64,000 bases of DNA from NCBI GenBank assembly GCA_050186825.1, contig JBFWYD010000031.1, forward strand, positions 43,999 through 107,998. The letters are read 5' to 3'. A program made the position numbers and the translations under genes. Below are positions 1,684 to 28,302 of the stretch, piece after piece (within the stretch, counting starts at the first letter, position 1; every line of letters starts with the position of its first letter). The DNA comes from Planctomycetota bacterium (GTDB lineage Bacteria > Planctomycetota > J058). The notes under the pieces were generated by a model. That model did no database searches. It was not told where the DNA came from and saw only the letters and a program-made list of their open reading frames with translations.

Positions 1684-1697
1684 CGCCCGCGCGCCCC

Positions 1698-2174
1698 CTA
1701 GCCGGCGAAGTGACCGCGCAGGGTGGCGAGCACCATCCCCCAGGCGCGCTCGAAGTAGGCCTGGAGCTCGGGCCAGCGCCCGCCCACCCCCCAGCCGAGC
1801 TGGGTCAGCGAGACGCGCGTCCCGGGGCCGAGGGGCTCGAGCTCGAGCACGACCCAGGTGTGCTGGCCGCGCAGCTCGCCGAAGTCCGGCGGCGCATTCC
1901 AGGAGAAGGAGAGCATCCGCTCGGGCAGGTAGCTGAGCACCCGACAGCCCTCGCTCCCGCGCGCGCCCAGGGGCTGCTCGCCGTCGAAGTAGAGCTCGTA
2001 GGCGCCGCCCGGCTCGAGCTCGATCCAGCAGGGGACCCCGAAGAAGCCCTCGAAGCCGGCGCTCGTGGTCCAGGCCGCCCACACCCGCGCGGGCTCGGCC
2101 GGGACCTCGACCGAGAGGCGCAGCGCGGGCGCGGCTGGATCGAGGTCACGGCGGCGAGGCGCGGCGTCGTGCAC
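1698..2174 (-). CDS. SRPBCC / AHSA1-like (activator of Hsp90 ATPase homologue) domain protein
   Basis: 158 aa. PARVWAAWTT...GFFG...SFSW...VVLELEPLG resembles the Aha1/SRPBCC fold. Its stop lies 14 nt upstream of the kinase start, so the two are likely co-transcribed. Confidence 0.7.
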   Translation of the reverse strand: MHDAAPRRRDLDPAAPALRLSVEVPAEPARVWAAWTTSAGFEGFFGVPCWIELEPGGAYELYFDGEQPLGARGSEGCRVLSYLPERMLSFSWNAPPDFGELRGQHTWVVLELEPLGPGTRVSLTQLGWGVGGRWPELQAYFERAWGMVLATLRGHFAG

Positions 2175-2511
2175 GGCGGGATCGTAACCGAGCCCAGGCT
2201 GACAACGCCGGCGACGCGTCGCGGGGAGGAGCCGGGACGGATCGGCCGCGGCGGCGACCTAACTCGTTGCTCCCCGAGCGCGGGGGTGGCACCTCCCCTG
2301 CCCGGGGCCGAGACGAGAGAGAGCGGGTTCGTCTTCCAACACCTCTCGTGTCCTTGAACCAGCCCTTCCCGCTCGCCCCCTCCTGTGTAGGACCCGACCG
2401 CCGGGTGTGCGCTCGCCGCACGGCCCGCGGAGCGAGCGTGAAGCGCACACACCCTGTGCGCACCCCGCACGAAGGCCGCCCCCAGGCGGCTAGGAAGTCC
2501 GAGGAGTCCCC

Positions 2512-3645
2512 GTGAGACCGCACCTCCCGCTCTGTTCCCTGGGTCTGATCGCCTGCGCGCTGGCATCGCCGGCGGCCGCCGCCGATGCCCTCGACCCGAT
2601 CCGCGCGGGCCAGGGGCTCCTGCGGCGCGGGGCCCGCGGCGCGGCGGTCGGCACGCTGCAGCGCTTGCTCAACGAGCGCGCGCGCGAGTCGCTGGTGGTC
2701 GACGGGGTCTTCGGCGTGCGGACCGAGGTCGCGGTGCGCAGCTTCCAGGGCGCGCAGCGGCTGAGCGTGGACGGCGTGGTCGGCCCGCGGACCGTGGCCG
2801 CGCTCGACGCGCTCGCCGGCTCGACGCCCCGCGCGCCCTCCCCCACGCCCCCGCGCGCGCCCGCGCCGCCGCCCGGGGCGGGCGGGATGCGCTCGATCCC
2901 GCCGCGGCCCGCCAACGCGCGCGGCGGCCGCCAGGTGCTGGCCTCGACCGACGGGATGTCCCTGGCGGCGCGCGGGCGCGCGCTGACCCAGGAGCTCCTG
3001 GCCGGGAACCTGCCCGCCTTCGAGCGGCGGCTGGTGCCCCTGACCCTCAGCGGCGCGGGCGGGGACGGGCGGCAGCACAGCCTGACCGTGTGGGTCACGC
3101 CCGACTACCTCGCCGTCGGCGACGACGGCGACTTCGTGCGCGTGCCCCTCGACCCGCTCGAGGCGCAGCGCGTGGCCGACGCCTTCGGCTGCCTGCTGCC
3201 CACCGCGCGCCTGGTGGACGCCGCCTGGCAGCAGGCCGGCGCCCGGCTCGAGCCGGCCCCGCTCCCGCCCAGCGCGCAGATGCAGGGCAACGACTACCTG
3301 CGCCGGGCCGAGGCCGCGGTCGAGGCCCGGCGGGCGGGGACGCCGCTCGGGACGCTGGTGGCGGGCGTCAAGAAGGACGTGGTCATCACCAACCGCCTGC
3401 TCAGCAACCCGCGCCGGGTCGCGATCTACGGCTGGCACCGCCGGGACGGGCGCCCCTGGCAGCCGCTGAGCACGGTCCACGAGGACTCCTACGCCGACTA
3501 CAGCCACGGGGTGCGGCTCGTCTCGCGCCGGGTCGTGGCCGACGGCAACGCGCGCGACCTCGAGCAGCTCTACCGCGACCCGACCTTCGCCCCCCTGCTC
3601 TCGGGGGAGGGCCCGCTGCGGATCGTGCGCTACGGGACTCCCTGA
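2512..3645 (+). CDS. Secreted protein with N-terminal peptidoglycan-binding (PG_binding_1) domain
   Basis: GTG start preceded by AGGAG. Signal peptide MRPHLPLCSLGLIACALASPAAAA. The PG-binding repeat is LQRLLNERARESLVVDGVFGVRTEVAVRSFQGAQRLSVDGVVGPRTVAAL. It diverges from the SRPBCC-HK operon. Confidence 0.8.
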   Translation: MRPHLPLCSLGLIACALASPAAAADALDPIRAGQGLLRRGARGAAVGTLQRLLNERARESLVVDGVFGVRTEVAVRSFQGAQRLSVDGVVGPRTVAALDALAGSTPRAPSPTPPRAPAPPPGAGGMRSIPPRPANARGGRQVLASTDGMSLAARGRALTQELLAGNLPAFERRLVPLTLSGAGGDGRQHSLTVWVTPDYLAVGDDGDFVRVPLDPLEAQRVADAFGCLLPTARLVDAAWQQAGARLEPAPLPPSAQMQGNDYLRRAEAAVEARRAGTPLGTLVAGVKKDVVITNRLLSNPRRVAIYGWHRRDGRPWQPLSTVHEDSYADYSHGVRLVSRRVVADGNARDLEQLYRDPTFAPLLSGEGPLRIVRYGTP

Positions 3646-3731
3646 GCCGGCGCGCGCCCCATGGGCGATCGCGCTGTTGTCAGCGCTCCCGGCCTGGTCT
3701 AGAACCTCCGCCCCGAACTAAGGAGGGTCGA

Positions 3732-5426
3732 ATGTTCAAGGCCAGGAGTGGCTGGGTGCTGGGTTGCTGGGCGCTGGCGCTGGCGCTGGCGGCCAGCAGC
3801 AACGCCAGCGCGGCGGAGTGGTGGGTCAAGGCTGGCGCCAGCGGCAAGGGCGACAGCAAGGACGCCCCCGCCGGCAGCCTCGCGGACGTGCTCGAGCAGG
3901 TCACGCGTGGCGACGTCGTGCACGTGGCCGAGGGCGAGTACAACGGCAAGGGCGGCACCGGCGAGTTCCGGATCGGCGTCCCCGACCTGACGCTCGCCGG
4001 CGGCTACAGCGCCGACTTCTCGGCCCGCGACCCCTTCAAGCACGTCTCGCTGCTGCGCCGCAAGGCGGGCGTCAAGACCGACTACACCAAGACCGAGGGC
4101 GGCCTGATCTGCGTCGACCCCGACGCCCACAAGGAGGCGCGCTTCTCCAGCTGCTCGGGCCTGATCGTGGACGGCTTCGTCCTCGATGGCGCCACGCGCA
4201 ACGTCTACAACGCGAACGACCACCGCCTGGCCGCGCAGGGCTCCTGGAAGGAGTCGCTGATCAAGCTCGCGGCCGCGGACTTCTACACCACCGCGAACAT
4301 CAAGATCCGCAACTGCGTGCTGCTCAATTGCTACAACATGGGGATCGAGATCAAGTGGTTGGGTGACCAGAACGAGATCACCAACTGTCTGATCGTGAAC
4401 AACATGATCGCCGGGATCGACGCGCGCGCCGCGCAGAGCCCGCCCAGCGCGCCCGGCGCCCCGGAGAACTACCCCGAGACGAAGCTCACGATCAAGGGCT
4501 GCACGGTGGGCTTCAACTGGGAGCACGACAAGGCGCAGATGGCCAACGGCGTGCTCCTGGGCGGCAAGGGCACGTTCACCATCACCGACAACGTGTTCGC
4601 CTGGTGCGCGGGCAAGAGCAGCGCGGGCGTGCGCGGCGCCAAGGACGGCGACGCGGTCAAGGGCAACGTGTTCTGGATGACCAGCGACGCCGCGAGCGCC
4701 GGCGGCGACAACGCCGCGGCCGACCCCGGCTTCGCCAAGCGGATGTCCAAGGCCTGGTTCACGCCCTTCACCGGCTTCGCGGCCCGCTACGGCAAGCTCG
4801 AGCTCGACGGGATCAACGCCGAGCGCAAGGCGGCCGGCCTGGACCCGATCGAGAAGCTCGGCCAGGCCATGGCGCCGGAGCTCTGCGCCTGGGGCGTGGC
4901 GCTGGAGCCCAAGCTCGAGGAGTTCGTGACCGCCTTCAAGGCCGACCAGGAGGGCAAGGGCTGGAACCCGGCCGGCCCCTTCGAGGCCTACAAGGAGCGC
5001 GCCTGCGCGCTGCCGGGCGGCAAGCCCGGCGCCGAGGGCGACTACCAGGCGATCGAGTTCACCGACCTGCTCAGGAAGGGCGGCAAGGACCTGGCGGACG
5101 GGACCAAGGTCAAGCTCAAGCTCACGCTCCGCACCCGCGCGGCGCGCTACGGCGACAAGCAGCACGGGCTGGTCGGCAACGAGTACCTGCAGGTCGAGGT
5201 CGGCAAGCCGGGTGAGAAGGTGGCCGGCAACACGACGAACAAGCTGTTCGCCTACTTCGTGCACGGCGCGCAGCCGAACCTGGTCTGGAACCGCTTCGGC
5301 AAGCGCGGCGCCAACGCCAAGACCCAGGGCGGGGTCGAGGCCACGGGCACGCTGTTCAAGACCTCCCAGCCGGCCAACGGCGCCGTGCCCTACGTGCTCG
5401 TGATCGACCACCTCGGCGAGCCTTGA
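3732..5426 (+). CDS. Secreted right-handed parallel beta-helix (pectin-lyase-fold) repeat protein
   Basis: Strong SD AAGGAGGG lies before ATG 3732. Signal peptide MFKARSGWVLGCWALALALAASSNASA. Beta-helix repeat signatures NCVLLNCYNMGIEI / NCLIVNNMIAGID. Unusually Lys/Gly-rich for this genome. The ORF-track start at 3090 is an upstream read-through artefact. Confidence 0.75.
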   Translation: MFKARSGWVLGCWALALALAASSNASAAEWWVKAGASGKGDSKDAPAGSLADVLEQVTRGDVVHVAEGEYNGKGGTGEFRIGVPDLTLAGGYSADFSARDPFKHVSLLRRKAGVKTDYTKTEGGLICVDPDAHKEARFSSCSGLIVDGFVLDGATRNVYNANDHRLAAQGSWKESLIKLAAADFYTTANIKIRNCVLLNCYNMGIEIKWLGDQNEITNCLIVNNMIAGIDARAAQSPPSAPGAPENYPETKLTIKGCTVGFNWEHDKAQMANGVLLGGKGTFTITDNVFAWCAGKSSAGVRGAKDGDAVKGNVFWMTSDAASAGGDNAAADPGFAKRMSKAWFTPFTGFAARYGKLELDGINAERKAAGLDPIEKLGQAMAPELCAWGVALEPKLEEFVTAFKADQEGKGWNPAGPFEAYKERACALPGGKPGAEGDYQAIEFTDLLRKGGKDLADGTKVKLKLTLRTRAARYGDKQHGLVGNEYLQVEVGKPGEKVAGNTTNKLFAYFVHGAQPNLVWNRFGKRGANAKTQGGVEATGTLFKTSQPANGAVPYVLVIDHLGEP

Positions 5427-5985
5427 GCCGAGCTGCGGATGCCGAGCGTTCACGCGGGGGCGGGAGCTGGGGCGAGAGCGCCAGGGAGTGAACGTCCTGC
5501 TGGCGACCGGGCGCGCAGCGCCCGGGCGGCAGCAGGTCGACGCAAGCGGAGTGGTCGAGCGCAGCTCGACCTCCGCGCCAGCGAACGCTCGGCCTCCTTG
5601 CTCGGCTCAATGGGCGGAGGCGGGTCGCTGCGGGCAAGCGGGGCTGCGGCACCGCGGAGGGTGATTGCGAGTCCACCCGGTCTCGGAGCTGACGCCCGAC
5701 CTTCAGCGCCAATGCGCCTTGAAGAGTAGGGCTGGCCCCCCCGGCGCGGTCTCTCTCACTAGGGGGCAGTGAAGTCGCATAGAGCGCGAGCAGGGAACCT
5801 GATCGACGATCGCAGCGCCCAAGCGCAGGGTTCTACGGAGCTCCATGCCCCGAGTCGAACATCTGCGGGCGAGGTCACCAAGCTCGTGAGCTAGGCTAGG
5901 CGCCGGCAGCGCCGCCCGATCGAAGCCGAGGGGTTCGCGAAACAGGCGCTGGATTCCGCTCGCCCCGCCGGGCATCCTCTGCGGC

Positions 5986-8955
5986 ATGACGCGCCGCCCG
6001 CTCTCTCGCCCCGGCCTCGCCGCTCGCCCCGGCCTCGCCTTTGGCCTGCTCCTCCTGCTCGCGCTGCCCTGCGCGGCCCAGCCGCACCCCTTCGGGGGCG
6101 AGGTGCTCGACCTCGTGGGCGAGGCCGAGCAGGTGCGCGCGGCGACCACGCCCGCGGCCCGCCAGCAGGCGAGCGAGCGCTTCCTGAAGACCCTCTACCG
6201 CGACCCCTACCTCAAGGAGCTGGGCCCGCGGATGCACCTGGAGCGCTTCGTCTCGGCGCTGGCCGCGGGCGAGCCCTTCGACGCGGCGGCCTTCCGCGCC
6301 GCGGCCAAGGACGCGGTGGCCCGGCACCAGAACCTGACGGCCGACGTGGGCGTGGCCGAGCTGACCCAGAAGATGCAGGTGGTCGAGCTGGCCTTCACCA
6401 CCCGGCGCGCGGGCCCCGGTGCGCCGCGCGGGCCCCCCGTGGACGCGGGCGAGTTCGCGCGCCACGACATGGCCGAGGTGCTGAACAAGGGCGACACCAA
6501 GCTCCTGAGCATGGAGCGCGTCCCCGGCGCGAGCGTGCTGCTGCTCAACGACCGGGTCTCGCTGCCCGGGGAGGGCTCGCGCACCGAGCTGGCCCTCGAC
6601 CTCTACGGGCGCGTGCTGACCGGCGAGGGCGGCGGCCACGGCGACCTGCGCGGCGGGCTGGCGCACCGCGAGGTCGGGCGCGCGGTGCTCTCCCCGACGC
6701 GCACGCATCCCCTCGGCGCCGAGACGGCGGACGTGCTCAAGGGCGTGGGCCCGACCCCCTTCGCCGGCAACCGCTTCAACTCGAAGGCGACCGGCACCTT
6801 CCCCCTGCCCGAGGCCGTGCGCGACTGGAACCAGACCGAGACCCTGCGCAAGGCGGGCGTCGCGATCTACGAGCCCGTGGCGATCGTGGCGCTCCCCTAC
6901 ATGGAGTGGAGCGCGAGCGAGGGCTGGCGCCCGGTGGCGGTCTACGTGCGCCGCCCGCGCGAGAACCTGCGCGTCTCGGACCTCGACCACCTGAGCGACG
7001 CCAAGAAGCGGCTGCTGCTGGAGAAGCTCAGGGGGAAGATGCAGGCCGAGCTCACGGGCGTCGGGCGCGCGGACGCGCTGAGCGACGTGGACGTGGTCCG
7101 GATGTTCGTCGAGCGCATGGGCCGCACCGCCGGGATCTTCCAGGGCGGGATCGGCGAGGGCCGCTACTACTTCCACGGGATGCTCCACGACCAGAACGTG
7201 AGCCTGATGGGCGAGATCGTGGACGTCGGCAACAGCGATGGCGTGCTCGAGTCGCGCGAGGCGATGCGCAAGGCCTGGGAGGCCAGCAACTACACCTGGT
7301 GGCCCGAGAAGCTCAAGGAGTACAAGGACCTCAAGGGCAACGTCGAGACCGCGGTCCTGTTCCGGCTGGCGCGCCGCTACAACGAGGCGCTGAAGTCGGT
7401 CACGGGCGGCGGGATGAGCGAGGCCGAGCTGACCGAGCTGTTCAAGGCCGCCTACCGCGAGGGCCGGCGCGGCGTCTCGGCCAGCGACCCCAAGCTGACC
7501 CTCCGCGCGCGCACGCCCGAGGCCGTGGCCAAGAAGCTCGACGAGCTGCGCCGCCCCGACGGCACCGTGGAGTGGAGCAAGGTCGCGCGCGACCGGGCCC
7601 TGGTCGAGGGCGCGGGCCTGGCGAACTTCACCCTGGCGCTGTTCCTCAAGGAGCTGGCCGCGGTGGCGGCCACAGGCGACCGGGCGCGGATCGAGGAGTT
7701 CTTCGACGGCCTCCTGACCACCGACTTCTACGAGGACTACGGCCTGTTCGTGGCCGGGGCCAAGCTGGGCGAGGTCGCCTACACGCGCTACCTGCAGCGC
7801 TTCGTCAAGCCGCGCTTCGTGAACGGCGTGCTCAAGACCAACCTGGTGCTCGCGACCGGCATGGCCCTGCCGCTGATCGTCGAGGGCAAGTTCGAGGGCA
7901 AGGCCTTCGCGATCTCGGTGGCCTCGCTCGGGCTCTCGTCGGCGGCGGTCAAGGCGGGCGTGGCCGGGATCGAGTGGGTGCTCGACATCAGCAAGGCGCG
8001 CGAGGCGGGCGTGCTGGCGCGCCTGAGCGGCGCCGGCCGCCTGGCCAAGCTCGGCGGCTGGTTCTACACGGCGGCCGAGCTGGCGGTCGTGCTCTACGTG
8101 GCGGACGAGCTCGAGACCCGGGTCAACGCCGCCCTCGACCAGAAGGCCGCGCGCGACGCGCTGGCCGCGGCGGGCCGCGACTTCCTGGCGGCCACCCGCG
8201 GCGGACGCACCCAGGAGGTCGAGGCCGCGGCCGAGGCCTACCACCAGGCCTGGATCGACTACCGCAACTTCCTCTACCGGCCGCTGGAGCAGGACGAGCT
8301 GGTCCTGGCCGAGCGCCTGCAGCGCTCGGCGCGTCAGGCCAAGCTGCTCGCCGACAAGCGCGCGGCCACCCTGGAGCGAGTCTCCCAGCAGCCCGCCCTG
8401 CGCCAGAGCATCGAGCGCCGCTACGGCTCGCTCGAGGCCTACGCGGACGCCCTGGCCAAGGAGGAGGAGGAGCAGGTCCGCGCCGAGGTCAACACCTACC
8501 TCGACTCCTACAACAAGACCCGCGCCGAGCACCTGCGCGCGGTCTACGAGGACGGCCGGCGCCGCGGCGCGCTGCTCGGCGGGCTGGACGACCTCGACTG
8601 GCTGCTGCGCGGGGGCGAGGCGCACGCCGCGGGCGACCCCTTCGGGTCGCGCGACGACGTGTTCGCGAGCTGGGGGCGCGGCCGTGCTCGTGGCCGCCTG
8701 GACGACGCCCTGGGCGGCGCGTCCGCCAACCGCCTCCAGGCCTACGACGACGAGGCCGAGGTGTTCGCGGCCGTGGCCGGCGCCCTGCGCCGCTCGGGCC
8801 GCGGCGACCTGGCCGACCTCCTCGACGCCCGCCGCCGCGGCGTGCTGCAGCTCCAGGCCATGGACAAGGACCTGGTCCGAACGGGCGGCGTGGTCGACAC
8901 CCGCAACCGCGCCGGCATCAGCGAGCGGATGCGCGCCGCCACGCCGGGGCGCTGA
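5986..8955 (+). CDS. Large secreted protein with a SelO/YdiU-like (protein-kinase-fold AMPylase) active-site motif
   Basis: 989 aa with signal peptide MTRRPLSRPGLAARPGLAFGLLLLLALPCAAQP. The motif YYFHGMLHDQNVSLMGEIVDVGNSDG closely resembles the SelO signature HGV(L/M)NTDNMSILGETIDYGP. Amino-acid composition is diverse, unlike the antisense ORF 5896-8967, which is Ala/Gly/Arg low-complexity. Confidence 0.75.
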   Translation: MTRRPLSRPGLAARPGLAFGLLLLLALPCAAQPHPFGGEVLDLVGEAEQVRAATTPAARQQASERFLKTLYRDPYLKELGPRMHLERFVSALAAGEPFDAAAFRAAAKDAVARHQNLTADVGVAELTQKMQVVELAFTTRRAGPGAPRGPPVDAGEFARHDMAEVLNKGDTKLLSMERVPGASVLLLNDRVSLPGEGSRTELALDLYGRVLTGEGGGHGDLRGGLAHREVGRAVLSPTRTHPLGAETADVLKGVGPTPFAGNRFNSKATGTFPLPEAVRDWNQTETLRKAGVAIYEPVAIVALPYMEWSASEGWRPVAVYVRRPRENLRVSDLDHLSDAKKRLLLEKLRGKMQAELTGVGRADALSDVDVVRMFVERMGRTAGIFQGGIGEGRYYFHGMLHDQNVSLMGEIVDVGNSDGVLESREAMRKAWEASNYTWWPEKLKEYKDLKGNVETAVLFRLARRYNEALKSVTGGGMSEAELTELFKAAYREGRRGVSASDPKLTLRARTPEAVAKKLDELRRPDGTVEWSKVARDRALVEGAGLANFTLALFLKELAAVAATGDRARIEEFFDGLLTTDFYEDYGLFVAGAKLGEVAYTRYLQRFVKPRFVNGVLKTNLVLATGMALPLIVEGKFEGKAFAISVASLGLSSAAVKAGVAGIEWVLDISKAREAGVLARLSGAGRLAKLGGWFYTAAELAVVLYVADELETRVNAALDQKAARDALAAAGRDFLAATRGGRTQEVEAAAEAYHQAWIDYRNFLYRPLEQDELVLAERLQRSARQAKLLADKRAATLERVSQQPALRQSIERRYGSLEAYADALAKEEEEQVRAEVNTYLDSYNKTRAEHLRAVYEDGRRRGALLGGLDDLDWLLRGGEAHAAGDPFGSRDDVFASWGRGRARGRLDDALGGASANRLQAYDDEAEVFAAVAGALRRSGRGDLADLLDARRRGVLQLQAMDKDLVRTGGVVDTRNRAGISERMRAATPGR

Positions 8956-9006
8956 GGCGCGGGGCACTCACTAGGTCAACCGCTTGATCGGCTGCCAGCG
9001 GCTTCC

Positions 9007-9070
9007 GTGCTCGTGCTCGTGCTCGTGCTCGTGATCGTGATCGTCGACGTGAGCGTGGACGTGATCGCGA
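9007..9070. repeat. Hexanucleotide microsatellite (GTGCTC)5(GTGATC)2 and degenerate copies
   Basis: Direct reading: gtgctcgtgctcgtgctcgtgctcgtgatcgtgatcgtcgacgtgagcgtggacgtgatc. Confidence 0.8.
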
Positions 9071-9133
9071 CTACGACTCCGACCACGAGGGAGCCCGACC
9101 ACGGATCGGAGACGCGCCCTCGCACGGGGTGGT

Positions 9134-9341
9134 GATCTCCGCGATCTCTGCGATCTCTGCGCTGATTACCAGCGCCCTCGCACGACCTCCCGACTCCGCC
9201 TCGGAGCGAGGACTCCGCGTCGAGGGCGCACTCCGCGAAGCGTGCCCGAGTCCGGGTTCTCGGGCGCGATCCGTTCCGGATTCGCCATGAGCCGCGGGAG
9301 CGTTGGATTCAAGCGCAGAGATCGCAGAGATCGCGGAGATC
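9134..9341. repeat. Perfect 29-bp inverted repeat pair (arms 9134-9162 and 9313-9341) flanking ~150 bp; MITE-like or large hairpin
   Basis: Left arm gatctccgcgatctctgcgatctctgcgc. Right arm gcgcagagatcgcagagatcgcggagatc is its exact reverse complement. Each arm is itself an (AGAGATCGC)3 triplet. Confidence 0.8.
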
Positions 9342-9380
9342 GCCCCGTGTGAGCGGGCGCGCGTAGCCGAGGCGAGCCGC

Positions 9381-9710
9381 TCGGACTCGGACTCGGACTC
9401 GGCCTCGGTCTCGGACTCGGTCTCGGACTCGGACTCGAACTCGAACTCGGACTCGGACTCGAACTCGAACTCGGACTCGGAATCGGAATCGGAGTCGGAG
9501 TCGGACTCGGACTCGGACTCGGGCTCGGAATCGGACTCGGACTCGAACTCGGAATCGGAGTCGGAATCGGAGTCGGAATCGGACTCGGACTCGGGCTCGG
9601 ACTCGGAATCGGAATCGGAGTCGGAGTCGGACTCGGACTCGGACTCGGGCTCGGAATCGGACTCGGGCTCGGAATCGGACTCGGCCTCGGACTCGGGCTC
9701 GGGCTCGGAC
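9381..9710. repeat. (GACTCG)n hexanucleotide microsatellite, ~55 units with point variants (GAATCG, GAGTCG, GGCTCG)
   Basis: Direct reading. It is open in two frames on both strands (DSDS... / SESE...), which creates the spurious ORFs 9303-9848(+) and 9071-9712(-). Confidence 0.85.
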
Positions 9711-9717
9711 ACCCCGA

Positions 9718-10130
9718 CCCTTCGCGTTCCTCCGCGTCTTTCCCGGCCTCACTACACCGAGGGCCCCTTCGCGTTCCTCCGCGTCTTTCCCGGCCTCACT
9801 CCACCGCACGAGGCTTCGCGACTCTGCGCCTTTGCGCCTTTGCGTTGAACGAACCGCGCTGGCAGCTCCTTGACCCCTCCGCCTTCCAGAGCACGCCCGC
9901 GAATCCGGCGGGCCGCGCACCACGACGGCAGGGTCCCGGCTGCGATTCCGATTCGCGGGCGCGCGGCGGGAGGCGAAGGACCAGGAGCTGCGACGGCGGT
10001 TCATTCAACGCAAAGGCGCGAAGGCGCAGAGGCGCGAAGAGGTCGTGGAACTTCGAGGGCGGGAAAGGAACGAAGACCGCGAAGCTCGCGATCGACTTCG
10101 AGGGCGGGAAAGGCACGAAGAACGCGAAGG
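9718..10130. repeat. Imperfect large palindrome: two direct 36-bp repeats (9718-9753, 9765-9800), an 18-bp inverted pair (9836-9853 / 10000-10017), and two inverted-orientation 34-bp repeats (10051-10084, 10096-10130)
   Basis: cccttcgcgttcctccgcgtctttcccggcctcact occurs twice. cttcgagggcgggaaaggaacgaagaccgcgaag occurs twice and is ~70% identical to the reverse complement of the first repeat. gcctttgcgttgaacgaa pairs with ttcattcaacgcaaaggc. The symmetry centre is near 9920. Confidence 0.75.
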
Positions 10131-10185
10131 TCGGGTCGTGGGTCGCCTCGGTCGAGATAGGCGGACTCGGACCCGACCTCGGTCC

Positions 10186-11970
10186 CTACTCCTTCTCCCC
10201 CTGACGCAGCACCAGGCAGCGGTCCACGGGCACGTCCTCGAGGACCGTGCGCCGCAGCTCGCGGCTCGGCCAGAGGACCTCCAGGCGGTCGACCTTGGTC
10301 GCAGCGCCCAGGCCGAAGGCGGCCTCGCGGGCGTCGACGTGGCCGGCGTGGCCGCGGGCGCCCACGACCTCGCGCAGGTAGCGGCGACCGCCGGCCCACA
10401 CCGTGACGCGCGCGCCGTAGGCCTCGGGGCTGGCGCCGCCGCGGGCCGCGCCCGCGCCCACCAGGCGCACGTTCAGCCAGCGGCGCTGGCTGCCGACCTG
10501 GTTCTCGAACAGGGCGGGGCGGAGCACGCGGCCCTGGCGGCGCTCGGCGGGGAGGCGGTTGTTGCTGTTGCCGACCAGGATGTCGACGTCGCCGTCCTTG
10601 TCGTAGTCCGCGAGGCTGAGCGCGGTGCAGTTGTCCCACGCGAGCCCCGCCGGGCCGGTCACGTCCACGAAGTGCCCGGGGCGGTCCTGGCGGAACAGCC
10701 GCGCCCTGTTGTCGTCGGGGTACTCGCCCGAGGCCACGATCAGGTCCTGCCAGCCGTCGTTGTCCACGTCGGCGAAGCCCGCGAACAGGTCGCCCTGGTT
10801 CCAGCTCGGCGTGACGTGCTGGCGCGCGCACACCGCCTCGTCGCGGCGGAAGCGCAGCGGCGGTCCCTCGTTCCAGAGCAGGCTCGAGCGGTCGCTCGAG
10901 GGCCCGGCCCAGGCGTGGGTGATCTCGCCCAGGAACACGTCCACGCGCCCGTCGTTGTCCACGTCCGCGGCCGGGGCGTCGAAGGTGTTGCCGTTGGCCC
11001 GGAAGGGGAGCTCGTCGGGGCGCTCCTGGCCGTAGCGCCGCCGGAACATCTCCTTGATCTCCTTGCTGTAGGTGCCGCTCTCGTCCTGGTCGCCCGCGAA
11101 GCCGGTCTCGGTGCCGACCTCGCGGAAGGTGCCGTCGCCCTGGTTCAGGTAGAGCAGGTTGCGCTGCCGGCCGTAGGCGCAGAGCAGGACCTCGGCGCGG
11201 CCGTCGCCGTCGAGGTCGGCGAAGGCGACCCCGAAGATCGGGCGCCGGCTGTCGAGCCGGCCGGGCTCGGGGCGGAGCGCGAGGCCCGCCTCGCGGGTCA
11301 CCTCGCGGAAGCTGCCCCGGGGGCCGCCCGCGAGCAGGCGGACCGGGTAGGCCTCGAGCTCGGCGCCGCCCGCCTTGTAGGTCGAGCCCAGGACCAGGTC
11401 CAGCCGCCCGTCGTGGTCGCGGTCGAAGAGCCCGCCCGCGACCACGGGCTCGGGCTCGAGCGGCAGCGGGCGCAGGTCGGGCTGGAAGCGGAGGGGCCCG
11501 GTCTGCCAGTGGACCCGCGCGCGCGGGGCGGGGGCCTTGCGCTTGGGGTCGCTGGGGTCGTCGGCCCAGATCACCAGCGCGTCCTGGTCGCCGTCCTGGT
11601 CGAGGTCCGCGAACAGCGTCAGCGCGGGGGTCGGGGCGTCTGGCGCGATCCCGAGCGCGTCCGGGACCTCGACGAAGCGGCGGCCCCCGCCAGGCGCGGG
11701 GACGTTCCGGAACAGGCGCCGGTTCGCGAGCATCACGTCCGGCCAGGTGTCGCCGTCGACGTCCACGAAGCAGCAGCGGTGCGCGAACAGCTCGGCGGGC
11801 AGCCCGCGCTCGCGCGCCACCTCCCGAAACCAGGGGGACTGCTCCTGGGGCTGGCCCTGGGGCTGGGGGGCGTCCTCGGCGCGCGCCGCGCCGCCGCTGG
11901 AGGCCAGGATTAGGAGCGTGGCCGCGGCCAGGAGCGCCAGCGCCCGCGCAGCTCGAGACGGGGTCGTCAC
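10186..11970 (-). CDS. CRTAC1-family protein (FG-GAP/VCBS repeats, C-terminal ASPIC/UnbV domain), secreted
   Basis: Signal peptide MTTPSRAARALALLAAATLLILASS. Repeated DxDGDGxxD FG-GAP motifs. The C-terminal stretch RVTVWAGGRRYLREVVGARGHAGHVDAREAAFGLGAATKVDRLEVLWPS matches UnbV_ASPIC. Confidence 0.85.
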   Translation of the reverse strand: MTTPSRAARALALLAAATLLILASSGGAARAEDAPQPQGQPQEQSPWFREVARERGLPAELFAHRCCFVDVDGDTWPDVMLANRRLFRNVPAPGGGRRFVEVPDALGIAPDAPTPALTLFADLDQDGDQDALVIWADDPSDPKRKAPAPRARVHWQTGPLRFQPDLRPLPLEPEPVVAGGLFDRDHDGRLDLVLGSTYKAGGAELEAYPVRLLAGGPRGSFREVTREAGLALRPEPGRLDSRRPIFGVAFADLDGDGRAEVLLCAYGRQRNLLYLNQGDGTFREVGTETGFAGDQDESGTYSKEIKEMFRRRYGQERPDELPFRANGNTFDAPAADVDNDGRVDVFLGEITHAWAGPSSDRSSLLWNEGPPLRFRRDEAVCARQHVTPSWNQGDLFAGFADVDNDGWQDLIVASGEYPDDNRARLFRQDRPGHFVDVTGPAGLAWDNCTALSLADYDKDGDVDILVGNSNNRLPAERRQGRVLRPALFENQVGSQRRWLNVRLVGAGAARGGASPEAYGARVTVWAGGRRYLREVVGARGHAGHVDAREAAFGLGAATKVDRLEVLWPSRELRRTVLEDVPVDRCLVLRQGEKE

Positions 11971-14900
11971 CGCGAGTCCTCCGGGGCGGGCGCCGAGAGC
12001 GCCACGCGGAAGCCCTGGTCCGGCGAACGGCGCGCGACGCCGAAGCCCGCCCGGGTGTAGCTCTGGAAGGCGAAGTGGATCTCGCGCGCCCAGTCGCCCC
12101 CGCGCATCACGGCCTGCGGCTCCTTGGGGTCGCGTGGGACCGGGTTGCTGTAGTCCACGAGCTCACCCGCGGGCCAGGGGGCGAACAGGTCCGCGGTGAT
12201 CTCGGTCAGGTTGCCCGCCATGTTCAGGCAGCCGAAGGGCGAGGCGCCCTCGGGGAAGGCGTCGATGGGCGCGGTGAAGCGATACCCGTCCTCGGGGTCG
12301 TAGCGGTTGAGCAGCCGCGAGCTGGGCGGCGTGGGGCCCCAGGGATAGGCGCGCCCGTCCGGCCCGCGCGCCGCGTACTCCCACTCGAGCTCGCTCGGGA
12401 GCCGCAGCCCGGCCCACTCGCAGTAGGCGCGCGCGTCCTCCTGCGAGACCCCGTGCACCGGGTCCCGATCGCCGGCCGCCGCCTTCGACTTGGGGTCCGA
12501 CTCGGTGAGCATCCGGCCGGGCACCTCCGAGGGCGTGACCTTGATCGCGAAGCGGCGCGAGAGCTTGGCCCGCTTGGCCTCGACGCAGAAGCGGTCGAAC
12601 TGGGCCCAGCTCAGCTCGTACTTGCCGACGAAGTAGCCGCGCGTCAGCCGCGCCGGCCGGGGCGGCGGCACGTCCCAGTTGTCCACCGAGTTGGCGCCGG
12701 GGTTGAAGAAGGGGTCCGGCGGACCGCCCGCGGTGAAGCGCCCGGGCGGGACGTAGACGAACACGCTGCCGTCGCGCTCCCACACGTATTCGCGCGGCCG
12801 CTCGGGGTCGGGGCGCAGCCCCGGCGGCAGCGGCGGGCGCGGGTCGAGGCGCAGGTACCAGCCGGGGAGCTCGCCCACACAGCGAACGCGCACGGTGGCG
12901 GTCCCCTCCTGGCCGAGGGTGTCCGTGGCGTGGACCTCGAGCGTCTGCTCGCCGGGCTGGATCGCCACCCGGAGCGCGAAGCTCCCGTCGGCGCGGGTCG
13001 GCTCCGTCTCGTTGCCGGCGCCGCCCGCGACCCACACCTGGAGCCGCCCCGAGCCGGTGGTCCGACCGCGCACGGTCACGCGGGGCCCGCGCACCTCCGC
13101 GCCGTCGGCTGGGGCCTCGATCACGATCACCGGCGGGCGCCCCAGCCGGGCGCCCTCCCGGGGGGCGCGCGCCAGCGGGCCGAGGATGGCGACCGTCGCG
13201 GTCAGGAAGCCCAGCGCCAGCGCGGGCGCGACCAGCCAGCGCGCGCGCTGCAGCGCGCGCGACACCGGGCCGATCGGCCGCGCCTCGGTGGGCTCGCCGC
13301 GCTGCGCGCGCGCGAGGTCGCTCGCCAGGGCGTTGGCGTCGGGGTAGCGGTCCTCCGGCCGCGCCGAGAGCGCCTTGAGGCAGATCGCCTCGAGCTCGCG
13401 CGAGATCGTGCGGTCCAGCGCGCGCGGCCGGGTGGGCCTGGCCTCCTGGATCTGGTGGAAGAGCTGGAAGGCCGAGGCGCCGCGGAAGGGGCGTTCGCCC
13501 GTGAGCACCTCGTAGAGCACCACGCCCAGGGCCCACACGTCGGTGGCGGGCCCCTGGCGCTCGCGATCGCCGGTCACCTGCTCCGGCGCCATGTAGGCGG
13601 GCGTCCCCAGCTGGGTCCCGGTCTGCGTGAGCCGCTCGAGGTTCGCGGACGAGGCGAGCCCGAAGTCTGTGACCCGTACGCGCCCGGCGCCGTCGACGAG
13701 CAGGTTGTCCGGCTTCAGGTCGCGGTGCACCACGCCGCGCTCGTGCGCGTAGCCGAGCGCCTCGGCCGCCTGCCTCACGAGCTGCAGCCGCGAGGCGGGG
13801 GGGCGGTCGCGCGCCGCGCTGAGCAGGTCACGCGCACCCTCGACCAGCTCCATGACCAGGTAGAGGCCGTCCACGCCCTCGCTCCCGGCCTCGAGCACGT
13901 GCACGATCCCCTGGTGGCGCAGGCTGGCGGCGAGCTCGCCCTCGCGGCGAAAGCGCGCCTGGGCGGTGGGGCTGGGGGTGGAGAGCAGGATGCGCTTGAT
14001 CGCGACCTCGCGGCCCGTGGCCGCCTCGACGCCGCGGAACACCGCGCCCATCCCGCCGCGCCCGATCTCCTCGACCAGACGGTAGGCCCCCAGGCCCTGG
14101 CCACGCGGAGGCGAGGCGGCGGGCCGCGCGCCGCCGCCGTCCTCGTCCCAGCGCGTGCCCTCGTCGATCGCGCTCTCCGCGCCATTCCCAGGACCGCCCC
14201 CAGGAGTCCCAGGACCCTTCCGCGCCGGCGAGGCCCGCGAGCCCTCGGCGCGCGTGGCCTTGGCGTCGTCCTCGTCGTCGTCGTCGAAGGTCGTCTCACT
14301 CGCGGCGTTCTGCCGCCCGCCCGGACCCGCGTAGGCCGGGATCCCCTCTTGGTCCTCGGCGTCCCAGAGCGTGGCCTCGCCGGCGTCCGACTGGTCCGCT
14401 GGGCCCTGCGCCGCGCGCCGCCGCTGCTGGGGCGGCGGCGTCGGGGCGGAGCTCGGCGGCGGCGGCGCCGGCGGCTCGTCCTCGTCCTCGCCCCCCACGT
14501 CCCAGTGGGTCCGCTCGGCCTCCTCCTGCCCCTCGCCGCCCACGTCCCAGTAGGTGCGCTCGGCGGCGTCCTGGCTGGCGGGCCCCGAAGACCCCGACCT
14601 GGAGCTCGCCCCAGGACCCGACGACTCCGCGCCCGCGCCTGCGCTGTCCGCCGCGAGGGCCGGTTGATCCCACGAGGTCGTCGCGTTCGCGTCCTCGGCG
14701 GGGGCCGCCGGGGTCGTCGGCGCGCCCCAGGAGGTCTTGGCGTTGGGGTCGGGGGCCTCCTCCAGCGAGGTCTTGCTCGGGTCGAAGGGCGGCGGGGTCG
14801 GGCCGGGACCGCCGACCGCGGTCTCGCCGCCGCGCTCGTCGACGCTCGTCCCGCCCTCGTCGACGCTCGTCCCGCCCTCGTCGATGACCGTCGAGCCCCC

Positions 14901-15290
14901 GCGCCCGTCCTCGACGACGCTCGAGCCCCCGCCGGCATCGACCACGGTCGTGCCGCCGCGATCGTCGGGCTGGGCGTCGGGTTGGGCGTCGGGCTGGGCC
15001 TCGGGCTGGGCCTCGGGCCGTGTTGGGTCGAGCACCTCCACGAAGCGCAGGGTGGTCCCGCCCGAGACGCGGGGCTCCGCGTCGGGCGGCGGGAGCACGG
15101 CGCCGAAGCGCTGGGTGGTGACCCCGGCGGAGAGCACGACCTCGGCGATCGACTCCTCGCTCACCCAGCCGCGCTCGACCAGGGCCTGCCGCAGGCCGCC
15201 CGGACGCAGCTCGCCGAGGAGGCTGGCCAGCTGGCCCGCGCTGACGAGCTTGCGAGACAGGAGCTGCTTGGCCAGGGCCGCGTCGTCCAC
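11967..15290 (-). CDS. Ser/Thr protein kinase fused to a C-terminal formylglycine-generating-enzyme (FGE-sulfatase/SUMF1) domain; N-terminal MshEN-like segment
   Basis: Kinase motifs GRGGMGAVF, VAIK, HRDLKPDNLL, DFGLA and TPAYMAPE, followed by a TM helix. FGE domain motifs GVSQEDARAYCEWAGLRLPSELEWEYAARG...RGGDW. GTG start. There is a 4-nt overlap with the downstream CRTAC1 gene. The long antisense ORF 12075-15764 is rejected. Confidence 0.9.
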   Translation of the reverse strand: MDDAALAKQLLSRKLVSAGQLASLLGELRPGGLRQALVERGWVSEESIAEVVLSAGVTTQRFGAVLPPPDAEPRVSGGTTLRFVEVLDPTRPEAQPEAQPDAQPDAQPDDRGGTTVVDAGGGSSVVEDGRGGSTVIDEGGTSVDEGGTSVDERGGETAVGGPGPTPPPFDPSKTSLEEAPDPNAKTSWGAPTTPAAPAEDANATTSWDQPALAADSAGAGAESSGPGASSRSGSSGPASQDAAERTYWDVGGEGQEEAERTHWDVGGEDEDEPPAPPPPSSAPTPPPQQRRRAAQGPADQSDAGEATLWDAEDQEGIPAYAGPGGRQNAASETTFDDDDEDDAKATRAEGSRASPARKGPGTPGGGPGNGAESAIDEGTRWDEDGGGARPAASPPRGQGLGAYRLVEEIGRGGMGAVFRGVEAATGREVAIKRILLSTPSPTAQARFRREGELAASLRHQGIVHVLEAGSEGVDGLYLVMELVEGARDLLSAARDRPPASRLQLVRQAAEALGYAHERGVVHRDLKPDNLLVDGAGRVRVTDFGLASSANLERLTQTGTQLGTPAYMAPEQVTGDRERQGPATDVWALGVVLYEVLTGERPFRGASAFQLFHQIQEARPTRPRALDRTISRELEAICLKALSARPEDRYPDANALASDLARAQRGEPTEARPIGPVSRALQRARWLVAPALALGFLTATVAILGPLARAPREGARLGRPPVIVIEAPADGAEVRGPRVTVRGRTTGSGRLQVWVAGGAGNETEPTRADGSFALRVAIQPGEQTLEVHATDTLGQEGTATVRVRCVGELPGWYLRLDPRPPLPPGLRPDPERPREYVWERDGSVFVYVPPGRFTAGGPPDPFFNPGANSVDNWDVPPPRPARLTRGYFVGKYELSWAQFDRFCVEAKRAKLSRRFAIKVTPSEVPGRMLTESDPKSKAAAGDRDPVHGVSQEDARAYCEWAGLRLPSELEWEYAARGPDGRAYPWGPTPPSSRLLNRYDPEDGYRFTAPIDAFPEGASPFGCLNMAGNLTEITADLFAPWPAGELVDYSNPVPRDPKEPQAVMRGGDWAREIHFAFQSYTRAGFGVARRSPDQGFRVALSAPAPEDSR

Positions 15291-15363
15291 CGAGGACAGG
15301 TTAGTCTCGCGCCCGGCCGATGGGTGCGCGAGGGTGCGCCCTTCTGCGCCGAGGGGGTGGGAG

Positions 15364-15711
15364 ATGGCCGAGAACGAACCGGTCGAGCCCGTGGGCGTCG
15401 AGCTCCAGGACTCGCGCGGGCGGCTGCTCGTGCGCTGGAGCGACGGGGCCGAGACCAGCGCGCCCTATCGCGAGCTGCGCCTGGCCTGCCGCTGCGCCCT
15501 GTGCGTCGACGAGCTGAGCGGCGCGCCGCTCCTGGACCCGAACACGGTGCCCGCGGGCGTGGGCGTCAGCGGCTGCGAGGAGGTCGGCCTCTACGGGCTG
15601 CGCATCGCGTGGGACGACGGGCACAGCACCGGGATCTACACCTGGCGCCGGCTGCGAGCGCTGGCCGGCGCGCCCCAGGCCGGAGGTCCCCAGGAGGGCA
15701 CCCGTGGCTGA
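15364..15711 (+). CDS. DUF971 (gamma-butyrobetaine hydroxylase-like N-terminal) domain protein
   Basis: MAENEPVEPVGVELQDSRGRLLVRWSDGAETSAPYRELRLACRCALC... matches the DUF971 pattern. The ATG at 15364 is in frame with ORF 14737-15711, whose 5' part is antisense to the kinase. Confidence 0.7.
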   Translation: MAENEPVEPVGVELQDSRGRLLVRWSDGAETSAPYRELRLACRCALCVDELSGAPLLDPNTVPAGVGVSGCEEVGLYGLRIAWDDGHSTGIYTWRRLRALAGAPQAGGPQEGTRG

Positions 15712-16528
15712 GCTCCCCGTTGCCGAGGTCCGCGCCGAGCGCGACGGCGCGGCGCTGCGCCTGATCCTCGACGCGCAGGAGCGCGGCAACTCGCTCGACG
15801 CGGCCATGCTCGCCCGCCTGGCCGAGCTCCTGGGCGAGGCCGCGGCCGACCCCGAGGTGCGCGTGGTCGTGCTCGAGGGCGCGGGCACGCGCAGCTTCTC
15901 GACCGGATACCACGTGCCCTCGCTCCTGGCGGAGCTGGAGCGCGGGCCGAGCGTGAGCGACTTCGAGGACCACCCCCTCGAGCGGGCGCTGCGCGCGCTC
16001 GAGGCCCTCCCCCAGCCGAGCGTGGCCGTGGTCCGCGGCAACGCCTACGGCGCCGGCTGCGAGCTGGCCCTGGCCACCGACCTCCGGCTGGCGGCGCGCG
16101 ACGCGCGCTTCTGCATGCCGCCGGCGCGCCTGGGCGTGCTCTACAGCGCCACCGGCACCCGGCGGCTGCTCGAGCTGGTCGGCCCCGCGCTGACCCGCGA
16201 GCTCCTGTTCACGGCCTGTGTGGTCGACGCGGAGCGCGCGCTCGCGATCGGCCTCGTGAACCGCCTGGCCGCGCCCGAGGCCCTCGACGGCGCCGCGCGC
16301 GGCCTGATCGGGGAGATCGAGGCCAACGCGCCGCTCTCGCTCCGCCACCACAAGACGATCCTCAGCCGCTTCCTGGCCGCGGCCCCCCTCGACCAGCAGA
16401 CCCTGACCGAGGTCGCTCAGCTGCGCGAGGAGTGCTTTCGCTCGCCCGAGTTCGCGCGCCGAGCCGCGCGCCTGGCCGGCCGCGGCGGCCCGCCGCGCGA
16501 GCCCGAGAGCGGCGGCAGGTCGGCCTGA
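15704..16528 (+). CDS. Enoyl-CoA hydratase/isomerase (crotonase) family protein
   Basis: Crotonase motifs VVVLEGAGTRSFSTG and AVVRGNAYGAGCELALATDLRLAARDARF. GTG start overlaps the DUF971 stop, indicating translational coupling. Confidence 0.85.
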   Translation: MAELPVAEVRAERDGAALRLILDAQERGNSLDAAMLARLAELLGEAAADPEVRVVVLEGAGTRSFSTGYHVPSLLAELERGPSVSDFEDHPLERALRALEALPQPSVAVVRGNAYGAGCELALATDLRLAARDARFCMPPARLGVLYSATGTRRLLELVGPALTRELLFTACVVDAERALAIGLVNRLAAPEALDGAARGLIGEIEANAPLSLRHHKTILSRFLAAAPLDQQTLTEVAQLREECFRSPEFARRAARLAGRGGPPREPESGGRSA

Positions 16529-16605
16529 GCGGGCCCGCGCCCGCCCGCCTCGTCTCGGACCACGAGGGCTGGGATCCCCCCCGGGGCAGGGGATAGACTG
16601 CGCGC

Positions 16606-17184
16606 GTGATCCACTTCCGCTGCGGGGGCTGCAACCAGCTCATGTCCGTGCGTCCCGAGTTCGCGGGACGCTCGGGCAACTGCCCGAGCTGCGGCCGGCC
16701 CTTCGTGACCCCGCCGTCCTCGACGGCGGACCCGATGGCCACGGCCCCGCCCACCAACCTGCACGGCGTGTCGCGCGGGGCGTCGCCCCCGCCCCAGGCC
16801 CTGACGACTCAGCCCCTGGCCGCGCCGCCCCCGCCGGCGCCGCTGCCCACGTCCACGGGCCGCGTGGCCGCCGTGGCCGCGGCGCGCGCCAGCCTCGAGG
16901 TGGTGCACGGTCCGGGCGGCTTTCAGGGCAAGACCCTCTCGCTCGACCTCAGCAAGCCGATCGTGCTCGGGCGCGACCCGAGCGCCGACCTTCGCATCCC
17001 GAGCGAGCGGGTCAGCCGCCGCCACTGCCAGCTCCAGGCCTCGCCCCAGGGGACGGTGCTGGTGGACCTCGGCTCGAGCAACGGGACCCTGATCAACCAG
17101 GTCCGCGTCAACGGCTCGCAGCTGCTCCAGGCCGGCGACTACATCCAGACGGGCGACTGCCTGTTCCGCTACTCCCCTTCCTGA
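16606..17184 (+). CDS. Zinc-ribbon + FHA-domain protein
   Basis: N-terminal CGGCNQLMSV...NCPSCG is a zinc ribbon. C-terminal FHA motifs are PIVLGRDPSADLRIPSERVSRRHCQLQ...LVDLGSSNGTLINQVRV. Confidence 0.75.
   Translation: MIHFRCGGCNQLMSVRPEFAGRSGNCPSCGRPFVTPPSSTADPMATAPPTNLHGVSRGASPPPQALTTQPLAAPPPPAPLPTSTGRVAAVAAARASLEVVHGPGGFQGKTLSLDLSKPIVLGRDPSADLRIPSERVSRRHCQLQASPQGTVLVDLGSSNGTLINQVRVNGSQLLQAGDYIQTGDCLFRYSPS

Positions 17185-25428: not shown

Positions 25429-28302
<2,874 letters not shown>

Follow-up and report, generated by a model that had tools for sequence, protein, structure and literature searches.

Palindromes and short tandem repeats in a spacer between convergent genes of a Planctomycetota bacterium, with arms from a dispersed head-and-octamer family

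Our analysis of a 64-kb stretch of DNA from a Planctomycetota bacterium (contig JBFWYD010000031.1; G+C ~75%; hereafter the window, whose positions are used throughout) showed that the 1230-bp spacer at 8956-10185, flanked by the convergent genes 5986-8955 (+) and 10186-11970 (-), is non-coding and that about half of it is tandem repeat. It holds two palindromic modules, P1 and P2, and the inner arms of P2 are members of a dispersed family of short intergenic elements, consisting of a head and tandem 8-bp units, that occurs in at least 120 metagenome contigs. We give slightly better than even odds (a probability of roughly 0.55) to the reading that the spacer is a cluster of non-coding repeat DNA, similar to the short tandemly repeated repetitive (STRR) sequences of cyanobacteria and to repetitive extragenic palindromic (REP) sequences, which was locally amplified and grew in place. 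The original prediction, made from the DNA letters alone, of a long, repeat-saturated, non-coding spacer between two convergent genes is thus borne out, and the repeat density of the spacer is indeed abnormal.

Anatomy of the spacer

The whole spacer is a chain of repeat arms whose orientation alternates. Its parts are the following (strand is given where a feature has one).

9006-9120: left hexamer array, (CGTGCT)4(CGTGAT)2, then degenerate hexamers (CGTCGA, CGTGAG, ... CGACTC, CGACCA)
9121-9350: palindromic module P1, with a left 9-mer array (GCGATCTCT)3 at 9134-9162, a core at ~9168-9307, and a right head and array, ATTCAAG-CGCAGAGAT x3, at 9308-9343
9380-9712: hexamer tract of 55 units, GACTCG and variants, extending outward beyond the right arm of P1, whose polarity it shares
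9715-10135: palindromic module P2, with a palindromic core at 9850-10003 and the parts on the next four lines
9718-9811: two left 47-bp units of P2, which share an exact core of 35 nt
9813-9849, minus-strand sense: left octamer array and head, an arm of P2
10004-10040, plus strand: right head and octamer array TTCAACGCAAAGGCGCGAAGGCGCAGAGGCGCGAAGA, an arm of P2
10033-10122: two right 45-bp units, outer right part of P2
10128-10184, minus strand: small hairpin directly 3' of the stop codon of 10186-11970 (an FG-GAP repeat protein gene, see below), with an inverted repeat at 10128-10148 / 10159-10179, then UUCGCGUUCUUCGU on the minus strand

In an inverted-repeat scan of the whole window, the P1 and P2 palindromes take ranks 1 and 2. 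The inverted repeat of P1, proposed as a perfect 29-bp pair, is in fact perfect over 30 bp (9134-9163 / 9312-9341) and makes up the outer portion of a hairpin of 226 nt; the arms of the module are 73% complementary over 78 nt, with an overall identity of 66%, and its DNA fold reaches -87.9 kcal/mol (z = -8.9; 0/200 shuffles as good). The large imperfect palindrome that had been described further to the right also exists, as P2, although its outer units measure 47 and 45 bp and not 34-36 bp. Its arms are 87% complementary over 62 nt and 80% over 30 nt (70% identical overall), and the DNA fold of the region (9705-10185) reaches -169.9 kcal/mol (z = -9.8), which none of 100 shuffles equalled. The left hexamer array, read earlier as a clean (GTGCTC)5, is present but consists of (GTGCTC)4(GTGATC)2 followed by degenerate hexamers. 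Tandem Repeats Finder (TRF) reports it at 9006-9044 (6.5 copies, 96% matches) and at 9006-9067 (10.3 copies, 84%), and its RNA fold is not above that of shuffles (z = -0.3 and -0.6).

Outward from the centre, all four arms of P1 and P2 have the same order: a core of ~140-150 bp, a head TTCAA, three to five short units and the motif CCYCGTGYG. The arm head common to the two modules is TTCAA(G)CGCA[AG]AG; in P1 it reads TTCAAG in the right arm and is degenerate in the left arm. The short units are of 8 bp in P2 (CGCAAAGG, CGCGAAGG or CGCAGAGG) and of 9 bp in P1 (CGCAGAGAT), and the head and array of P1 can be aligned both with P2 and with a metagenome locus, L009, that we describe below. Since the alignment of P1 with P2 scores z = 8.4 against shuffles, the two are, as judged from their letters, diverged copies of one module. 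The outer arrays keep the polarity of the arms: P2 has a pair of 45-47-bp units at either side, and P1 is followed on the right by the 55-unit hexamer tract and preceded on the left by shorter degenerate hexamers. A tentative third arm at 8976-9005 (GGTCAA...GCTGCCAGCG) resembles the end of the P2 core and gave no convincing alignment in MAFFT. On the far side of P2, a hexamer-like remnant, CGGACTCGGACCCGACCTCGGTC, at 10162-10184 matches 23 nt of the GACTCG tract at 91% identity. It lies within the small hairpin, whose minus-strand RNA folds with -34.2 kcal/mol (z = -2.5) and whose following UUCGCGUUCUUCGU is rich in U only in comparison with the rest of this genome.

The spacer is non-coding and its hexamer tract bears the marks of slippage

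Both flanking genes have a G+C content at third codon positions (GC3) of 0.98, and the GC3 periodicity ends at both stop codons, with none in the spacer outside the hexamer tract. The tract itself, predicted at about 55 copies of GACTCG, was confirmed as such by TRF (9380-9710, 55.2 copies, 87% matches, score 445). In its unit table TCG is invariant and the variation is confined to the first three bases; variants come in pairs (12-bp steps), and a block of 10 units is repeated at an offset of 126 bp. These pairwise and blockwise variants are the signature of slippage and segmental duplication and not of selection on a peptide.

The original prediction had left room for a peptide, and runs of the (GACTCG)n type often encode Ser-Asp repeats. 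The acidic Ser-Asp or Ser-Glu repeat peptide would be read from an open reading frame (ORF) at 9303-9848 on the plus strand or at 9071-9712 on the minus strand; the two frames do remain open, with a third-position GC of 0.85-0.95, and (GACTCG)4 was found in a viral scan in 71 viral contigs. We set the peptide aside as extremely unlikely because its codon usage is incompatible with the host. In the plus frame, GAA accounts for 10 of the 16 Glu codons and GAG for 6, as against 110 GAG and not one GAA in the flanking genes (0/110); the minus frame needs GAT ten times, a codon that the flanking genes use once in 112 (GAC 111, GAT 1). Furthermore, the non-repeat parts of both ORFs have a GC3 of 0.67-0.77 compared to 0.98 in real genes, both ORFs begin and finish within the palindromes (one with a TTG start in a palindrome arm), neither has a real Pfam match, and neither is among the gene calls of JBFWOT010000054.1, a second record of this region (see below). 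The only gene call of that contig in the spacer is a 42-aa ORF within the left hexamer array (9007-9135), for which an exact look-up gave no match; the 42-43 aa ORFs in this array are repeat artefacts. The tract resembles the Ser-Asp repeat regions of surface proteins in its hexamer period and in that GACTCG can be read as Asp-Ser, but here there is no surrounding gene, the codons do not suit the host and palindromes lie on both sides. The number of viral contigs with (GACTCG)4 also means that this sequence is not specific to the locus.

Dense palindromes and microsatellites are typical of some replication origins, termini (dif) and other recombination sites and of phase-variable expression switches, all of which had been put forward for this spacer, and GATC is mildly enriched in it (13 observed vs 7.4 expected). 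A role of this kind is nevertheless hard to credit. The window contains no DnaA box with up to one mismatch and the locus no dif-like sequence; its lowest-GC 30-mer is still 50% GC, leaving no AT-rich stretch; the cumulative GC skew is flat over the locus, without a switch; and among the few neighbouring genes examined there is no dnaA/dnaN or xer context. As for phase variation, the tracts sit between two 3' ends, without a promoter-like site or a reading frame that could be switched. We agree, on the other hand, with the earlier exclusion of clustered regularly interspaced short palindromic repeats (CRISPR), since the units are contiguous without unique spacers; a direct-repeat analysis showed no spaced family. 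A search of Rfam with the window and with six loci of the family described below gave only sub-threshold, microRNA-like hairpin matches.

The inner arms of P2 belong to a dispersed family

We define the family, from this analysis, as TT(C/T)AA-CGC(AAAGRCGC)n, i.e. a head followed by tandem 8-bp units. The P2-arm 19-mer is the less specific probe and gave six matches in 596 Gb of genomes, corresponding to five chance matches and a real one, L009. Here four arms of the form TTCAACGC(AAAGGCGC...) alternate in orientation, including head-to-head junctions, at the very end of the contig, much like the cluster in the window. They lie downstream of a small gene whose product we take to be CsoR-like, by eye and not by a Pfam run. 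The 24-mer TTCAACGCAAAGRCGCRAAGRCGC, generalised from L009 and the window and used to scan metagenome and viral collections, matches at least 120 metagenome contigs and 4 viral contigs. The suggestion that the spacer contains a REP family was therefore right in part: the inner arms of P2 are members of a dispersed family, but the GTAG/CGTC tag of REPs is absent.

Our sample of the family comprises 124 loci (606 kb, GC 0.39-0.74) that carry 242 arrays of 2-5 units. The bases before the first CGC are TTCAA in 157 of the 242 arrays and TTTAA in 21 (178 together), a count that is biased since 136 arrays were chosen via a pattern containing TTCAA. Inverted partners are common, the 124 loci containing 64 hairpins of the form head-array-loop (5-149 nt)-array'-head', and a contig can carry many arrays, as in 12 arrays in 12 kb (L134) or three hairpins in 4 kb elsewhere. 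The flanks are mutually unrelated except at orthologous loci, so what the loci share is the short element itself. The hosts come from at least three phyla; judged by neighbouring proteins, they include Acidobacteriota (Pyrinomonadaceae) and Myxococcota (Polyangiaceae, 96% identity to a Byssovorax metagenome-assembled genome, or MAG), in addition to this Planctomycetota MAG. The densest carrier seen, L134 (IMG/VR UViG_3300014202_001126, 1-12149), encodes a phage-type integrase and a ParB-like protein beside its 12 head and octamer arrays, which suggests a route for transfer between hosts. A literature search with the octamer strings returned only primer coincidences and no relevant paper; we could not find the octamer-array family described, it is absent from Rfam, and it is apparently undescribed.

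The window locus shares three of four family features. The head TT(C/T)AA stands directly before the first CGC, with 10004 (+) and 9849 (-) reading TTCAACGC; two or more units follow, each P2 arm having four full 8-bp units CGCNRAGN and the beginning of a fifth; and the position is intergenic with unique flanks. The fourth, heads outermost, is reversed, the heads of P1 and P2 facing the centre and the arrays running outward. Matches to the metagenome family are confined to 9808-9849 and 10003-10044, and the whole window has 2 canonical arrays and 2 nine-mer variants, the latter being the arrays of P1 with their TTCAAG head. The 9-mer CGCAGAGAT also follows an AAC head in locus L139. In the viral scans, the 47-bp unit pattern had 0 matches and the 9-mer array had 2, one a coding coincidence and the other a real array.

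Other short-period arrays were seen beside or instead of octamers at several loci (L139 6000-6140, L074, L090, L114, L118, L042 and L112), namely CACAGAGG or CGCAGAGAT after an AAC head, CACGGATTT and AACGATAT. They suggest a wider superfamily of heads with short-unit arrays.

Growth in place or insertion of mobile elements

We infer the following order of events. The seed would have been the dispersed short element, with its head TT(C/T)AA and tandem 8-bp CGCAAAGR, that is found between genes of many uncultured soil, peat and sediment bacteria. A segment with one arm may then have been duplicated in inverted orientation, giving a palindromic module with a central core, heads inward and arrays outward; because the modules are palindromic through their centres, we favour this over two independent insertions. 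The relatedness of P1 and P2 points to a further duplication, of the module itself, which would have been followed by divergence to the present 9-bp CGCAGAGAT unit of P1, and strand slippage would have lengthened the outer arrays, the hexamer tract most of all (55 units). A convergent spacer can tolerate such growth because there is no promoter or reading frame inside it, and the rest may be selectively neutral.

We also count in support of local growth a second repeat-rich spacer in the window, at ~47,940-48,307. It has tandem repeats of 72 bp (x2.9) and 35 bp (x3.5) with CCAAGGCG motifs, and a perfect 24-bp inverted repeat at 48226-48249 / 48284-48307 that overlaps the stop codon of the minus-strand ORF 48301-49584.

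The orthologous spacers of Polyangiaceae carry other, unrelated repeats. In Chondromyces crocatus (CP012159.1; L211, 11130-11250), an 18-bp unit, GAGCCGGGCGTCGTTTCA, is repeated five times 3' of the gene that is orthologous to the one with the octamer hairpin at locus L059; in the Byssovorax MAG (L212, 11090-11330), an unrelated palindrome of ~230 bp lies 3' of the orthologue of the same gene. This difference at the same site indicates that the spacers 3' of genes in large GC-rich genomes readily gain lineage-specific repeats.

An insertion of miniature inverted-repeat transposable elements (MITEs), or the decay of larger ones, had been the first explanation offered for the repeats. P1 and P2 would then be inserted non-autonomous elements or their remnants, with the octamer arms as terminal repeats, and a number of features are as such elements would have them: the terminal inverted repeats are there (the perfect 30-bp repeat of P1 and the long arms of P2, 62 nt at 87%), the two modules are related, hexamer-like sequence lies at both sides of P2, and in many metagenome contigs pairs of head and array flank a unique core of 5-150 nt like terminal inverted repeats, several per contig, with arrays dense on the integrase/ParB mobile element. 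We nonetheless regard an insertion as unlikely. No target-site duplication is found, since the complementarity simply fades outward (CACGGGG / CCCCGTG at P1; CCCGACC / GGTCGGG at P2) and neither module has a direct repeat adjoining its ends; the hexamer-like sequence beside P2 is a remnant of the tract and not a duplication of fixed length; and the flanks of the family at large show no consistent duplication. The inward heads are the reverse of the common family arrangement, and no transposase lies beside the spacer: the two genes that border it and the one that follows downstream have other functions or no Pfam match. In addition, the parts specific to P1 and P2 have no second copy in the window, in plasmids or in viral contigs. 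The original prediction had proposed a BLASTN check for further copies of the inverted repeat and the units; run within the window, as blastn and three mismatch-tolerant motif searches, it found none of the 29-bp inverted repeat, the 47-bp units or the cores outside the locus, and a BLAST against plasmids with both halves of the region gave no match.

What the repeats may do

The most likely effect of the locus, from our analysis, is that the convergent transcripts form hairpins at their 3' ends. Transcripts reading through from either gene would fold into stable hairpins of 226 and ~420 nt, which would stop or stall the read-through and protect 3' ends, as has been proposed for REPs and for cyanobacterial STRRs. 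We count the small terminator-like hairpin after the FG-GAP stop codon in support of this.

Several observations weigh against such a reading of the locus. The consensus scan of the spacer yielded no canonical terminator, the small hairpin at 10128-10179 not matching its consensus; the RNA folds in the window are nearly equal in stability on both strands; and mismatches of the G.U type show no clear strand bias (6 vs 12 in P2, 5 vs 3 in P1). The heads-inward order is rare in the family, being that of just 4 pairs of adjacent arrays in the loci as against 64 standard hairpins. By a crude count, 108 gene 3' ends and 92 gene 5' ends face an element, which is no clear preference. At six orthologous loci (L014, L034, L054, L082, L083 and L131), a head and three octamers stand 10-11 nt upstream of a GTG or ATG start, a poor fit to a pure terminator. 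The gene in question presumably encodes a UvrC-like protein (GIY-YIG), from a reading of its translated N-terminus and not from Pfam. The element is kept at all six of these loci and the spacer beyond it is unalignable, with other short arrays (TTCTGACT x4; AAATCCGTG x3). Lastly, in 32 two-headed hairpins CGCAAAG is invariant, and the eighth base of the unit is complementary in 36% of unit pairs vs 47% expected by chance; given an invariant heptamer and no covariation between the arms, it is the sequence that is conserved and not the pairing. Such conservation appears to fit a recognition site, or an element that has recently spread or is mobile, better than a generic terminator.

Two possible signs of RNA-level function were rejected. 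A preference of the family for gene ends (38% of elements within 30 nt of a long-frame stop vs 9% at random) is exaggerated, owing to antisense open frames in contigs rich in GC; greedy ORF calling is too crude here, as it placed 65 of the 124 elements 'inside an ORF'. For a G.U asymmetry as a sign of RNA-level selection, an ungapped comparison was out of register and carried no information (64 vs 59), and the head-anchored version shows no arm covariation.

The invariant heptamer raises the question of whether the repeats are an array of binding sites, as the original prediction had also suggested. CGCAAAG every 8 bp beside a TTCAAC head would then be recognised by a protein that binds DNA or RNA and that is conserved between phyla, and the locus would be a large cluster of sites, for instance a nucleoid or insulator element. 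The lack of arm covariation has if anything strengthened this idea, which also draws on the identity of the sequence in hosts of 39 to 74% GC from three phyla and on the head and three units kept 10 nt upstream of the UvrC-like start where the rest of the spacer has diverged. For the locus as a whole it seems rather doubtful to us: no candidate protein has been identified, the 8-bp period does not match the helical repeat, two canonical arrays and two nine-mer variants in 64 kb make a genome-wide role in this host unlikely, and most of the 1.2 kb (hexamers, 47-bp units and cores) is without the heptamer.

A broader reading centred on the family is one that we put forward tentatively. The TT(C/T)AAC heads with CGCAAAGR arrays may form an undescribed family of intergenic elements, dispersed across phyla, whose defining feature is the sequence and not the pairing; a dedicated recognition factor, such as a protein that binds the arrays or an enzyme that mobilises or extends them, might be shared or transferred among Acidobacteriota, Myxococcota and Planctomycetota; and the window locus could be an arm that was copied in inverted orientation twice, its arrays having mutated and expanded into the 6-, 9- and 47-bp families.

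The locus itself probably matters little to this genome, as a permissive spacer between convergent genes that has filled with self-amplifying repeats. The octamer family is the more interesting object: the same 24-nt sequence is present in at least 120 environmental contigs, from hosts of 39-74% GC in three phyla, and is kept at orthologous sites, with an invariant 7-mer and no arm covariation. One would not expect this pattern of simple terminators or of REPs that are specific to a species. Should the family prove to be undescribed, it would pose a tractable question, namely by what CGCAAAG arrays are recognised or spread. Both Pyrinomonadaceae and Polyangiaceae include cultured members.

Comparison with known repeat families

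The locus is best described as a set of dispersed short-tandem-repeat hairpin elements that lacks the defining features of STRRs (heptamers) and of REPs (the tag). STRRs are 7-bp tandem units of filamentous cyanobacteria; their function is unknown and transcript stabilisation has been proposed (PMC2670836). By their design they are the closest match to the octamer family and the local arrays, being short tandem units that are intergenic and dispersed and that form hairpins with an inverted array, although in our case the dispersal is seen in other hosts and not in the window. They differ in that the units of the window are of 6, 8, 9 and 45-47 bp and not heptanucleotides, in the conserved TTCAAC head, and in that the octamer family has one unit sequence across phyla, in Planctomycetota, Acidobacteriota and Myxococcota.

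REPs and bacterial interspersed mosaic elements (BIMEs) are stem-loops of 20-40 bp with a GTAG or CGTC tag at one of their ends, and roles in termination, mRNA stabilisation and supercoiling have been proposed for them (PMC3733652). Like these and REPINs, the octamer elements are extragenic and hairpin-forming, carry a short, conserved tag at the base of the stem, and occur singly, as inverted pairs and in alternating clusters. Their tag, however, is TT(C/T)AAC (TTCAAC / GTTGAA), and their stems are tandem 8-mers in variable number. REPs are usually specific to a species, unlike the cross-phylum octamer sequence, which is moreover not high-copy in the window. No REP-associated tyrosine transposase (RAYT) was seen among the few neighbouring genes examined. 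With MITEs the elements have in common that they are small and non-coding, with terminal inverted repeats and several copies per contig in some hosts; they differ in the missing target-site duplication, in P1 and P2 not being repeated within the window, in their inward heads and in having tandem arrays as arms instead of unique terminal repeats.

Assembly support

The product of 5986-8955 is exactly matched in an NCBI MAG, GCA_050250455.1, on contig JBFWOT010000054.1 ('Planctomycetota bacterium'), and the terminal 13.46 kb of this contig are 100% identical to window 5494-18955, with no gaps. The window extends 5.5 kb beyond the end of that contig (at 5494), and the protein record names a second contig, of 116,720 bp; the organism has therefore been assembled at least twice, with the region in more than one record. 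A Logan contig (SRR27751815) is 100% identical to window 10111-13401 and ends inside the right arm of P2.

That last end point, together with the metagenomic source of the sequence and the 126-bp internal duplications of the tract, which exceed many k-mers, would be consistent with an assembly artefact, in which a hairpin or repeat led the assembler to create the palindromes or the tract length. Among the public contigs of the family, at least L097 (4812 bp) is such a product: it is a near-perfect end-to-end palindrome with its centre at ~2413, on an octamer-array hairpin, i.e. a fold-back artefact. For the locus in the window we consider this explanation very unlikely. A fold-back gives arms that are 100% identical, whereas those of P1 and P2 are only 66-70% identical with indels and their sides run into different genes. 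The two assembled records are identical across the region, the Logan contig agrees throughout its overlap, and contig ends hold no excess of family elements (8 observed vs 8.4 expected). The number of hexamer units is the least secure feature of the locus and could be wrong.

Flanking genes and other repeats of the window

The genes around the spacer are the following.

5986-8955, plus strand: upstream convergent gene, 989 aa, hypothetical, without a Pfam match above threshold; GC3 0.985
10186-11970, minus strand: downstream convergent gene, 594 aa, FG-GAP/ASPIC-UnbV repeat protein (Pfam FG-GAP_3, 7e-31; UnbV_ASPIC, 5e-15); GC3 0.982
11967-15290, minus strand: Ser/Thr kinase-FGE gene, 1107 aa, overlapping the FG-GAP gene by 4 nt

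The stop codon of the upstream gene is the left edge of the spacer, and homologues of its product show a weak match to SelO. In other Planctomycetota MAGs, the spacers 3' of homologues of this gene measure 23-59 bp, which we count in favour of a local origin of the repeats; these homologues do not exceed 65% identity and their neighbouring genes differ, which precludes a comparative alignment of the spacer. Because of the 4-nt overlap, the FG-GAP and kinase-FGE genes probably form one operon. The product of the latter combines a Ser/Thr kinase domain, a glucodextranase-B-like domain and a C-terminal FGE-sulfatase (formylglycine-generating enzyme-like) domain. The next three downstream inter-gene spacers (window 15290-18024, from the gene calls of JBFWOT010000054.1) are of 42-77 bp, which makes a spacer of 1230 bp exceptional.

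Tandem repeats of another kind lie elsewhere in the window. At 26482-26678, a 15-bp unit is repeated 13 times (90% matches) in frame within a 957-aa ORF (25429-28302), the N-terminus of which we take, by eye and without a domain scan, to be that of a Ser/Thr kinase; it encodes ERAGP/ERAGS pentapeptide repeats and is thus a coding repeat, unlike those of the spacer. The tandem repeats detected by TRF at 23105-23241 and 36505-36661 have acidic GAGGAC/GACGAG-type units and AAGAAGGCCACC-type units (the latter would encode Lys/Ala-rich repeats), and are probably coding low-complexity regions.

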